From assembly GCA_945888995.1 (NCBI GenBank), contig CAMDBA010000001.1, forward strand, positions 12,796 through 76,795: a stretch of 64,000 bases of DNA, in the 5' to 3' direction. Positions 5,405-48,070 of this stretch are shown one piece after another; position 1 is the first letter of the stretch, and every line of letters starts with the position of its first letter. This stretch comes from a bacterium UBP8_UBA817 (lineage in GTDB: Bacteria; Margulisbacteria; Marinamargulisbacteria; CAMDBA01). The notes under the pieces are model-generated. The model was not told the DNA's origin. It was given only the letters and a program-made list of their open reading frames with translations, and made no database searches. The translations under genes and the position numbers were made by a program.

Positions 5405-5427
5405 TGGTGGAGGTGACCGGAGTTGAA
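5405..5427 (-). repeat. 23-bp exact duplicate of the tmRNA 3' end (attR-like)
   Basis: TGGTGGAGGTGACCGGAGTTGAA at 5405-5427 equals 5693-5715; on the minus strand it runs from the T-loop TTC to CCA. Confidence 0.9.
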
Positions 5428-5692
5428 GTCACTGCTGCGGCTGCCAACGCACCCTTGCTATGACCAAGTCTGCACTCCTGACGTTCCCGCCGTCGCGCTC
5501 ACTTTTCCTCCCTATTCGGTCGGCGGAGCTGGCTGTTCAACTCCGACGAAAAGGTTTTTTGTTACCACTTACTTCGAATGCTACCCATTTCCAAAAAATT
5601 TTAGTGAGATTGGTCATTTCTCGCGGAGGGGATAGTAGCGGAAGCTACAGACCCGCAGCGAAAATGGCCAAGATTGCAAAATTTTTTAGAAA
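5428..5692 (-). mobile_element. Putative gene-less miniature integrative element in tmRNA (265 bp)
   Basis: Bounded by the 23-bp direct repeat; contains a motif shared with the tRNA-Asp insert (5478-5525) and a 50-bp core shared with the tRNA-Tyr trailer (5616-5665). Confidence 0.55.
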
Positions 5693-6072
5693 TGGTGGAG
5701 GTGACCGGAGTTGAACCGGTGTCCGAAGGACCTGAAAGCTAATCCACTACGAGTGTAGTTTCTGTTTTATTTTTTAATAGTCGGGACTCCCAGAAACAGG
5801 ATTCCGTCCTACGAGATCCGGTAAAGTTTCGCTTCAAACCCCGTATCATAGTTTTTCGGCTAGTTGACTAGTTTTACGCCTCCCAGGTCTCATCAACGAA
5901 GACAAGGGCGACGGCTACCTAAATTTAATTAAGCAGCGAGTTTTTGAGAACCGAAGTTCCCGTAAGTAACGTTGTTGTCGTTTACTTTTTTTCTGCCTTT
6001 TTACGAGGCCGGGCAGCTCCTCGACTCGCGTTTTAGCCTCACAATATCCCCCGTCGAAACCATTACACCCCC
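5693..6072 (-). ncRNA. ssrA: tmRNA (one-piece, 380 nt)
   Basis: 5' GGGGGTGTAATGGTTTCGACGGGG; 3' GGACACCGGTTCAACTCCGGTCACCTCCACCA; acceptor stem with G3:U70; internal tag ORF ending LAA*. Confidence 0.97.
5929..5985 (-). other. tmRNA tag reading frame (A)VNDNNVTYGNFGSQKLAA*
   Basis: GTA AAC GAC AAC AAC GTT ACT TAC GGG AAC TTC GGT TCT CAA AAA CTC GCT GCT TAA; resume codon inferred from the usual GNN-AAC-GA context. Confidence 0.8.
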
Positions 6073-29143: not shown

Positions 29144-29172
29144 TTTACAAACTTCAAATTCGTCCCTATAAT
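29144..29172 (+). promoter_or_regulatory. Sigma70-type promoter of tRNA-Asp
   Basis: TTTACA (29144-49), 17 bp, TATAAT (29167-72), 19 nt before the tRNA. Confidence 0.7.
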
Positions 29173-29191: not shown

Positions 29192-29268
29192 GGGGACGTA
29201 GTTCAGTTGGTTAGAACGCCTGCCTGTCACGCAGGAGGTCGCCGGTTCGAGCCCGGTCGTCCCCGCCA
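29192..29268 (+). tRNA. tRNA-Asp(GTC)
   Basis: 77-nt cloverleaf GGGGACG...CGTCCCC-G-CCA, anticodon loop CT-GTC-AC, T-loop TTCGAGC. Confidence 0.98.
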
Positions 29269-29317
29269 CTAAATCATTAAATAACAACTTCACGATAGCC
29301 AAAACCGGTGACCTCCG

Positions 29318-29453
29318 GGAGGGCGCTGTGAGGAGGCCTTAAGCCGACGAAACCGAAGTTGCGCCGACCGAGTAGGGAGGAAAAGTGAAGGCAATAATGC
29401 CTGAACGTCAGCAACGTAGGCTGGGCGGCTTGATCCGCAGGATCAACGAAGCC
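29318..29453 (+). mobile_element. Putative gene-less miniature insert behind tRNA-Asp (136 bp)
   Basis: Lies between two identical 72-bp repeats; carries CGCCGACCGAGTAGGGAGGAAAAGTGA...GAACGTCAG shared with the tmRNA insert. Confidence 0.55.
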
Positions 29454-29525
29454 TTCGAGCCCGGTCGTCCCCGCCACTAAATCATTAAATAACAACTTCA
29501 CGATAGCCAAAACCGGTGACCTCCG
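29454..29525 (+). repeat. 72-bp exact direct repeat of the tRNA-Asp 3' end plus 49 nt of trailer
   Basis: 29246-29317 equals 29454-29525 (TTCGAGCCCGGTCGTCCCCGCCACTAAATC...GGTGACCTCCG). Confidence 0.95.
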
Positions 29526-29557
29526 TGAAAAGGGGTCATAGTCTTTTGCTTAGAAAA

Positions 29558-33610: not shown

Positions 33611-34490
33611 TTTTCTTGCAGCCTATACCCGTTTTTTAACGTTTTTAGAGCAAGAACGTCAGTATTCCACCCATACGATTAGCAGCTACAAGCGGGATCT
33701 AAGAACTTTTGGGGAGCACAGCGCTACCATCCCTGAATGGGAACAGCTTTCTCATCCGGAATGCAAGACTTACTTATATTTTCTTGAGTCAAAAGGGTAT
33801 AGCCGGAAGACGATTGCCAGGATGATCGCGACCATGCGGTCGTTTTGGCGATATCTGTCCGCACACAAAAACGTGACGCATAATCCTTGGGAATTTCTTA
33901 TCATCCCGAAACTCAAACCTAAATTACCGCAGTTTTTACTCAAAGATGAAATGGCCCGTTTTCTAAGTCAGATCGACACCAGTGAATCCGCAGGGTTGAG
34001 AGACCGCGCTATTTTTGAACTTCTGTATAGTTCCGGGCTTCGGGTTTCCGAGCTTGTCGCACTGGATATCGATGACGTCGACTTCGAAAATGACGAGATT
34101 AAAGTTCTCGGAAAAGGAAAAAAAGAGCGCATCGTTTTATTCGGTGGGATCGCCAAAGACGTGCTAATCCGATATATCAACAGCGCACGACCCGAATGGC
34201 TCACAGAACCTACCGACGCCTTATTTTTAAATCAACGAGGAAATCGACTGACGTCTCGCAGTATCCAGCGTATACTAAGGGTTCGTTCAGGATCTCTGTA
34301 TACCGGCAAATCCATTACGCCGCATACACTACGACATTCCTTTGCGACTGATTTATTAAACGGAGGCGCGGATTTACGAATCGTTCAGGATTTATTGGGG
34401 CATTCGAGTCTTTCAACGACTCAGATTTACACCCATATTTCTAAAGAAAAACTTCTGAAATCCTACAAAAAAGCCCATCCACATGCCTAA
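33600..34490 (+). CDS. xerC: Tyrosine recombinase XerC/XerD-type
   Basis: YSSGLRVSEL, GKGKKER, HTLRHSFATDLL, LGHSSLSTTQIY; start GTG 33600 (or ATG 33576). Confidence 0.88.
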   Translation: MTPSFLAAYTRFLTFLEQERQYSTHTISSYKRDLRTFGEHSATIPEWEQLSHPECKTYLYFLESKGYSRKTIARMIATMRSFWRYLSAHKNVTHNPWEFLIIPKLKPKLPQFLLKDEMARFLSQIDTSESAGLRDRAIFELLYSSGLRVSELVALDIDDVDFENDEIKVLGKGKKERIVLFGGIAKDVLIRYINSARPEWLTEPTDALFLNQRGNRLTSRSIQRILRVRSGSLYTGKSITPHTLRHSFATDLLNGGADLRIVQDLLGHSSLSTTQIYTHISKEKLLKSYKKAHPHA

Positions 34491-47988: not shown

Positions 47989-48070
47989 TTTTTTATCATG
48001 TGCAATTTCTCGCGAAGGGGATAGTCGCAGACGCTACAGACCCGAAGCGAAAATTGTACATGGAAAAAAA
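47989..48070 (-). repeat. Long hairpin directly 3' of tRNA-Tyr, with 50-bp core shared with the tmRNA trailer
   Basis: 48005-48054 matches 5616-5665 at 45/50 positions; flanked by locus-specific inverted arms. Confidence 0.85.

Follow-up and report, generated by a model that had tools for sequence, protein, structure and literature searches.

A conserved non-coding core behind tRNA and tmRNA genes in many bacterial phyla: a possible family of miniature mobile modules with target-matched arms

Genes for tRNA and tmRNA are classic landing sites of mobile DNA, and all insertions into such genes known to us require an integrase. The closest described systems are the integrative elements of tRNA and tmRNA genes and the CIMEs, which lodge in the 3' end of the gene, leave it intact, produce a direct repeat starting in the T-loop and accrete in tandem. 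The module described here shares these features, but the whole element measures only 130-290 bp, bears no gene and has no integrase, either within it or as an extra one in the genome. Its direct repeats, of 18-90 nt, often run past the CCA end, and it carries an inverted arm matched to its target. Neither such an arm nor a folded core shared across phyla is known from integrative elements or CIMEs. We face a gene-less unit with a conserved fold that repeatedly occupies tRNA and tmRNA sites in streamlined genomes. We give a probability of about one half to the reading that its core defines a family of miniature, widely distributed DNA modules, mobile or selfish but not autonomous, which insert at tRNA T-arms. 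This is the best supported of the readings that we weighed, and a functional RNA is its main rival.

Two copies lie in the window, that is, the whole stretch of 64,000 nucleotides that we analyzed. The first follows the tmRNA gene (5693..6072, minus strand; tag DNNVTYGNFGSQKLAA), recognized by ARAGORN and by Rfam family RF00023 with 188.9 bits. Repeat mapping identifies the last 23 nt of this gene (TTCAACTCCGGTCACCTCCACCA, 5715-5693, minus strand) as the left copy of a direct repeat; the distal copy (5405..5427, minus strand) reproduces the 23-nt tmRNA 3' part from T54 to CCA and is followed by hairpins and a T-run (5404-5361, minus strand) resembling a native terminator. Between the two lies the conserved core, of subtype 2 (5428..5538, minus strand; nhmmer and covariance model), which ends ...CAGACTTGGTCATAGCAAGG...GCAGCAGTGAC. 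A proximal inverted repeat, CGGAGTTGAA (5536..5545, minus strand), is the complement of TTCAACTCCG, the first 10 nt of the tail copy, and the two segments form a closing helix, P1, with 10 Watson-Crick pairs, or 12 if G-T pairs are allowed. As its loop sequence proves, the inverted segment is a true antisense of the T-arm and not the 5' strand of the T-stem. Within the core, and on the same strand, a 27-mer (5499..5525) contains a mini-hairpin with tandem G-A pairs, CC-GA-CC-GAAUA-GG-GA-GG; then come a hairpin supported by covariation, P3 (CGC-GACG-GCG, 5488..5497), and GAACGTCAG plus GAGT (5474..5486), corresponding to a junction and the 3' strand of helix P2. The latter helix was obtained from an alignment (A5) and read onto the sequence: GGAGT (5478-5474) pairs with GCTCC (5529-5525).

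The second copy follows the tRNA-Asp(GTC) gene (29192..29268, plus strand, as are all features of this locus), which is preceded by a strong promoter-like site (29144-29172). The left copy of its 72-nt direct repeat (29246-29317) is matched perfectly by a distal copy (29454..29525) running from T54 to 49 nt past CCA. The insert as a whole covers 29318-29453, of which 29349..29453 is the conserved core. The distal repeat reaches a terminator-like hairpin (29516-29539) that is complete there only. The core again comprises the 27-mer (29362..29388), hairpin P3 (AGGCA-ATAA-TGCCT, 29389..29402) and GAACGTCAG, here plus CAAC (29403..29415); in P2, GCAAC (29411-29415) pairs with GTTGC (29358-29362), two U-A pairs taking the place of the tandem G-A pairs seen elsewhere. 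At the left junction (29305-29335), the end of the 72-nt repeat (…GACCTCCG) directly abuts its near-complement (GGAGGGCGC…), giving a local palindrome, CCTCC-G-GGAGG, and the inverted arm of this copy resembles a degraded long arm. A 353-aa frame encoding a Xer-like tyrosine recombinase (about 33933-34448, plus strand) is located 4.5 kb downstream of the insert.

A preliminary description of the window had singled out what it called a right-end motif of the two inserts. Its individual observations hold: the two 27-mers, CGCCGACCGA(A/G)TAGGGAGGAAAAGTGA, are identical at 26 of 27 positions (5525-5499, minus strand, against 29362-29388, plus strand), where 100 shuffles give a chance expectation of 0 matches; each is followed by a hairpin of unlike sequence; and GAACGTCAG recurs unchanged 3' of the hairpin (5486-5478 and 29403-29411), at exactly 50 nt (tmRNA) or 42 nt (Asp) from a duplicated TTC, which is the start of the tmRNA or tRNA-Asp 3'-part copy. 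That the motif is shared by both inserts thus stands, but it is more than an end: a non-coding core of 105-115 nt, conserved and belonging to a repeated module, has the 27-mer, the hairpin and GAACGTCAG as its 5' half. Likewise, a common orientation relative to the upstream tRNA-like gene is observed throughout the present genome but not in a Firmicutes subfamily described below.

The genome amounts to 1.04 Mb in 15 contigs and is 76% complete. A pattern search and an nhmmer profile found six copies of the core, each just 3' of a tRNA or tmRNA gene: tmRNA, tRNA-Asp, tRNA-Val(gac), an initiator-like tRNA-Met, tRNA-Lys(ctt) and tRNA-Arg(tcg). Exactly six of the 31 tRNA and tmRNA genes have a downstream duplicate of their tail, and these are exactly the core-bearing ones. 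The duplicate starts at T54 (tmRNA, Asp), C56 (Val, Met, Arg) or A59 (Lys); it finishes at CCA in two cases (tmRNA, 23 nt; Lys, 18 nt) and continues well past it in the others (Val, 33 nt; Arg, 66 nt; Asp, 72 nt; Met, 31 nt exact, or 59 nt with one mismatch). In all six copies, the conserved stretch between the repeats has the same length range of 105-115 nt. About 10-12 nt before the GCGCC of each core, a short inverted arm complements the start of the tail copy at its own locus, for example GGGAATCG/CGATTCCC in the Val copy; with G-T pairs allowed, the arm reaches 16 pairs against its tRNA in the Lys copy and 11 in the Arg copy. No inverted repeat of this kind was found at the tRNA genes that have no core. 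The order of the module is therefore tRNA, spacer, inverted arm (T-loop and 3' part of the T-stem), a linker of about 10 nt, core and direct arm, where the direct and inverted arms pair and close the core.

A repeat unrelated to the core family, repeat X (…ATTTTCGCTnCGGGTCTGTAGC..GCTACTATCCCCTnCGCGAGAAAT…, with an inner hairpin GTAGC-TTCC-GCTAC), separates the tmRNA CCA from the core (5591..5683, minus strand). It was found by nhmmer in three genomic copies, of which the second lies directly behind tRNA-Tyr (48004..48057, minus strand), a gene having neither core nor tail duplication, and the third directly 3' of the duplicated tRNA-Lys tail (C9:8259-8353, minus strand). Repeat X is thus always directly 3' of a CCA end and seems to target this end, whether that of a real gene or of a mere tail copy.

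The preliminary description had also suggested selection on the fold of the hairpin and had proposed to look for covariation in a larger alignment. Larger alignments bear this suggestion out, and they show that the motif is part of a multi-helix core rather than a single hairpin. In 74 model-aligned copies, the structure pairs 84.5% of cells, with a covariation score of 0.229 against 0.068 for shuffles and at most 0.037 for slid partners, and P3 has double changes at all six of its pairs. The hairpin is kept in 65 further copies; extracted directly, these present 41 different P3 stems, whose 432 pairs include 429 Watson-Crick, 3 G-U and no A-C. When 30 diverse copies are aligned by MAFFT alone, RNAalifold finds four elements, namely P2, the mini-hairpin in the 27-mer, P3 and a P4/P5 arm, with double changes at 18 of 25 pairs. 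Altogether, four further helices covary besides P3. P2 has the form NN-GA-GC...GC-GA-NN (GCUCC/GGAGU in the tmRNA copy, GUUGC/GCAAC in the Asp copy); its 3' strand begins within GAACGTCAG, which is thus a junction and the start of a covarying strand. The mini-hairpin shows compensatory variants, CCGACU..AAGGAGG in the Val and Arg copies and CCGAGC..GCGAGG at locus L154. In well-aligned helices, G-U is no more frequent than A-C. Such a lack of G-U enrichment is unusual for RNA and typical of structures selected in DNA. As the stems contain almost no G-U, the fold may be selected at the DNA level, instead of or alongside the RNA level, and the same counts speak against a purely functional RNA.

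The core extends far beyond this genome. Using a covariance model built from six cores, we found it in 15 of 61 class-level relatives, at 1-9 copies each. An exact scan for a 21-mer, GCGCCGACYGANNARGGAGGA, in one genome per species returned 108 public contigs, with about twenty matches within GC-rich ORFs that we attribute to chance. These contigs come from Treponema and other Spirochaetota, Nitrospirales (Nitrospirota), Deltaproteobacteria, Armatimonadetes (Armatimonadota), Lachnospiraceae/Firmicutes, Omnitrophota, Verrucomicrobiota and others; two belong to the genomes of isolates, namely Treponema sp. C6A8, with a single copy following its tmRNA gene, and Dethiosulfatibacter aminovorans DSM 17477. 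At 69 of 119 instances, a tRNA or tmRNA gene on the same strand ends at most 600 nt upstream, and the genes concerned represent 14 tRNA types plus tmRNA. Nearly all copies have a direct repeat that begins within T-arm positions 52-59, at a distance of 18-26 nt from the tRNA 3' end, and it is often continued for 30-60 nt past CCA. The inverted arm measures 7-31 bp, is almost purely Watson-Crick, matches its own tRNA and pairs from the first base of the repeat. The longest, 31 bp at L015, includes the complement of 10 nt of the 3' trailer, and was therefore templated on DNA or on a precursor, not on the mature tRNA. Vehicles of transfer are less apparent: a blastn search of plasmid and phage collections produced no match to the core, and only one of 2.9 million viral contigs matched the 21-mer, so that no vehicle is known. 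This single contig (L150, IMG/VR, 32 kb) has two core-like hairpins.

Sequence relationships among copies resemble those of a mobile family. The Val, Met, Lys and Arg cores of the present genome are mutually 83-93% identical; the Asp core shares about 72% identity with these four and 61% with the tmRNA core. The latter has 57-61% identity to the other five and 80% to a tRNA-Val(tac) copy in a class-level relative. The presence of distinct subfamilies in one genome argues against simple concerted evolution. One Armatimonadetes MAG has five copies at different tRNA loci that are 90-99% alike, with arms altered to match; even a one-base difference between the T-loops of adjacent tRNA-Arg genes is mirrored in both the inverted and direct arms. 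Distribution is patchy within a single genus: of about 28 Treponema tmRNA loci, three have the core and two have remnants, and the closest relatives of one carrier have no core.

Tandem arrays occur, for example at L015, L010, L112 and L113, and their ends are arbitrary: they may follow CCA, fall within the spacer or the core, or coincide with the first core bases. Solo remnants at two Treponema tmRNA genes (L160, L163) retain spacer, inverted arm and linker with no core, and the tail copy has decayed at L113. Remnants or second units at L160, L163 and C11 (tRNA-Arg) end no more than a few bases from the G that opens GCGCC, as do the second units of L044, L049 and L099, which suggests a preferred breakpoint at the hairpin base. 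In the Firmicutes subfamily (L083:700-1060, L071:4330-4680), tRNA-Gly is located on the strand opposite the core and no promoter was seen; an 18-nt antisense tRNA tail abuts the motif side, and the other side pairs over 5 nt only. This subfamily would be the same module integrated via its other arm. Its units have no hairpin P3, and each repeats the tRNA terminator. A variant core is found in two tandem units upstream of tRNA-Ser(gct) in one relative (G044, L086:2000-2540), where every unit contains, once more, the promoter region together with the tRNA's first 26 nt; this is the sole case seen of a repeat from the tRNA 5' part.

We searched for known families and enzymes that may account for the core. 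No Rfam 15 family matches it, with gathering or E-value thresholds, in the window, three other loci of the same genome (E-value mode) and 16 loci from diverse phyla; matches at these loci are limited to tRNA, tmRNA and one CRISPR array. A literature search by motif letters and descriptive terms retrieved no such element, and two papers on bulk structured-RNA discovery make no mention of a tRNA-linked motif of this kind. The conserved positions of the junctions, compared by eye, do not fit hammerhead or hairpin ribozyme cores. A small ORF was rejected as well, since P3 stem swaps and differences in loop length shift the frame between copies, and no start codon is conserved across the family. 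A Shine-Dalgarno-like GGAGG stands 4 nt before a GTG in the Asp copy (29377-29388) and in the tRNA-Val copy (C2), with a frame that enters the tail copy; as this frame is not conserved between copies, it is probably fortuitous.

Clustering of ORFs at 108 loci shows only housekeeping neighbors, such as a histidine kinase, an ABC transporter, RNase PH and Ham1, and no integrase-type ORF beside the copies. Truncated copies at L040 and L115 were considered as ends of cargo-bearing elements, an idea we rejected on examining both loci. Reverse transcriptase (PF00078) is absent from the present genome and present in 10 of the 61 relatives, only one of them a carrier. TnpB (PF07282) and the IS110 transposase (PF01548), found in two and four of the 61 genomes, respectively, are both absent from the present one and have no association with the core. 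The IS200-type Y1 transposase (PF01797) is present here, but does not track the core (5 of 15 carriers, 23 of 46 non-carriers). The only tyrosine recombinases of this genome, as in many carrier relatives, are two Xer-like proteins, and tyrosine recombinases show no association with the core across the 61 genomes. At 76% completeness, absences from the present genome are strong hints, not proof. We saw neither circles nor excised forms, nor any orthologous site with conserved flanks in both an empty and a filled state, and two metagenome scans for population variants of this lineage gave no match.

Subfamily identities, matched arms, patchiness, arrays, remnants and reversed orientation together look like the behavior of a mobile entity; the absence of G-U enrichment and the extension of the L015 arm into the trailer complement hint at action on the DNA level. 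We infer mobility, the route of insertion and action as DNA or RNA from these observations, and envisage the following course. Within the T-arm of a tRNA gene, the module would insert by recombination or template switching, via its own tRNA-like arms, leaving an intact gene with a duplicated tail: a Campbell-type product made of tail, spacer, inverted arm, core and tail. Entry would be possible in either orientation; tandem arrays would build up, and copies would be lost by repeat- or hairpin-mediated deletion. Such an insertion explains why the gene stays intact and why repeat length varies, and also the occurrence of both orientations, arrays and solo remnants. The inverted arm would be kept perfectly complementary by templated copying, in the manner of quasipalindrome correction, which fits arms of near-perfect pairing and variable length; deletions with end points at the base of the hairpin agree with its extrusion at the DNA level. 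The arm-closed fold may be recognized by some factor, either as folded single-stranded DNA or as an RNA read through from the tRNA promoter. The Xer recombinases or RecA of the host might act, as might template switching during replication or some new factor; for Xer, this is pure conjecture. Against mobility stand the lack of an enzyme, of a circle or empty/filled pair and of a transfer vehicle. Furthermore, 21 nt shared unchanged between phyla and a fold of five helices containing tandem G-A pairs are more suggestive of a functional RNA than of junk DNA.

A bolder version of the mobile reading, which we hold tentatively and below even odds, is that of a previously undescribed class of selfish or symbiotic entities: a protein-less core of about 110 nt that re-templates its flanks from each new tRNA or tmRNA target, across phyla, via the host machinery of replication, recombination or RNA processing or via a factor reading the fold.

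The one serious alternative, albeit on the unlikely side, is a functional structured RNA gene that does not move. It would be transcribed by read-through from the tRNA or tmRNA, freed by tRNA 3' processing and bound by a conserved partner; its five helices would include a closing helix made from tRNA-derived sequence, with repeats and arrays as by-products of recombination. Multi-helix covariation, conserved unpaired purine-rich stretches and the tandem G-A motifs argue for such an RNA. So do the position of the core upstream of a terminator-like hairpin at the Asp and tmRNA loci, the promoter-like site before tRNA-Asp, the repetition of the tRNA promoter in each L086 unit, and the copy kept at the tmRNA gene in three Treponema species. 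Since the core lies between the tRNA and an apparent native terminator, it is probably transcribed in the present genome. However, stems have almost no G-U pairs (3 of 432 in P3), with no enrichment over A-C, the Firmicutes subfamily is antisense to the tRNA with no promoter in sight, and patchiness within a genus, truncated copies, remnants and the decaying tail of L113 are poorly accommodated; nor is it obvious why an RNA would require a repeat starting in the T-loop.

Where the host encodes CsrA, the RNA might serve as a Csr/Rsm-type protein sponge by means of its two CA-NGGA-UG hairpin loops and several single-stranded GGA motifs. Outside the present class (for example, L104, L042, L040 and L113), P3 and P5 loops indeed read CA-NGGA-UG and CAGGAUG, with dense GGA, and match CARGGAUG, the selection consensus of CsrA; CsrA is encoded in 8 of 8 tested hosts with GGA loops, one of which is a MAG labeled Prevotella, and loops and gene occur together in several other phyla. 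In the CsrA-free class, such loops are missing: the copies of the present genome have loops ATAA, TCTGG, GCTGG and TGAT, with no GGA, and CsrA is absent from this genome and from 59 of the 61 relatives. The core is nonetheless conserved there, and Nitrospira hosts have CsrA but no GGA loops; CsrA fits the lineages with GGA loops but fails as an account of the core. The mobile-DNA and functional-RNA readings are not mutually exclusive.

Two other readings fit worse than these. The first, which we deem improbable, is a guide-type RNA, comparable to omega RNAs, bridge RNAs or trans-splicing ribozymes, whose T-arm antisense, scaffold and sense tail would steer an effector to tRNAs or their genes. 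It would explain the homing to tRNA genes, and agrees with the succession of antisense tRNA 3' part, linker of about 10 nt and conserved scaffold, invariant in both orientations, and with arms that follow the tRNA even where cores are 99% alike. Against it, the neighbors are housekeeping genes with no effector among them, TnpB and IS110 are absent from the present genome and from almost all relatives, no Rfam omega RNA, bridge RNA or ribozyme matches, and the guide would be mostly sequestered by its own tail copy. The second, att scars left in these tRNA genes by deleted larger, integrase-borne islands or prophages, is close to refuted: direct repeats starting in the T-loop are the classic footprint of tyrosine integrases, but neither cargo nor integrase accompanies the same core of about 110 nt, intact at six loci here and at more than 100 elsewhere. 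Nor do scars explain an inverted arm matched to its target; many repeats extend for 30-60 nt beyond CCA, and viral contigs yield one match in 2.9 million and phage and plasmid collections none.

If the module is mobile, it would represent a new kind of site-specific insertion, possibly enzyme-independent or driven by host enzymes, together with spread between phyla; if it is an RNA, it would be a widespread, unannotated class of structured RNA tied to tRNA transcription units. Were the protein-less class to prove real, it would amount to a "viroid-sized" genomic parasite or commensal of tRNA genes. The module also explains why, in many MAGs, tRNA genes are followed by "att-like scars" and partial tRNA calls, and its core offers a compact fold for structural and biochemical study.

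Among other known systems, MITEs and REP/PATE sequences resemble the module in their small size, non-coding nature, multiple copies, flanking inverted repeats, folding and coexisting subfamilies. However, inverted repeats of the module are copied from its own target tRNA, whereas those of MITEs are encoded by the element; its long "target duplication" varies in length, our searches revealed neither a parent IS nor a transposase for it, and the Y1 transposase is uncorrelated. Csr/Rsm sponges (CsrB, RsmY/Z) are comparable to the cores of many carriers in their CA-NGGA-UG loops, dense GGA and unit of about 100 nt, but the present genome and its class keep the core with neither CsrA nor GGA loops, and no Csr-type Rfam family matches.

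The integrated layout resembles that of the CTX-phage attP(+) hairpin used by XerCD and of integron attC sites: a copy of the site, the rest of the element, an inverted half-site, a loop and another copy of the site. In these as in the module, structure is conserved over stem sequence and G-U is not favored. Unlike them, the module targets the T-arm of tRNA rather than dif or attI, has a conserved multi-helix loop and bears no cargo. An AT-rich, dif-like 28-mer, as expected of IMEX elements, is not visible by eye in the GC-rich core. With no integrase, inverted repeats derived from the target, and a location other than dif or attI, the module departs from each of these systems in a defining property. 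Template-switch rearrangements (quasipalindromes, DUP-TRP/INV-DUP) share with it a tail present three times, the middle one inverted, perfectly complementary arms of variable length, and deletions ending at the hairpin base; yet such rearrangements are sporadic mutations, whereas the module is a family with a conserved core across phyla.
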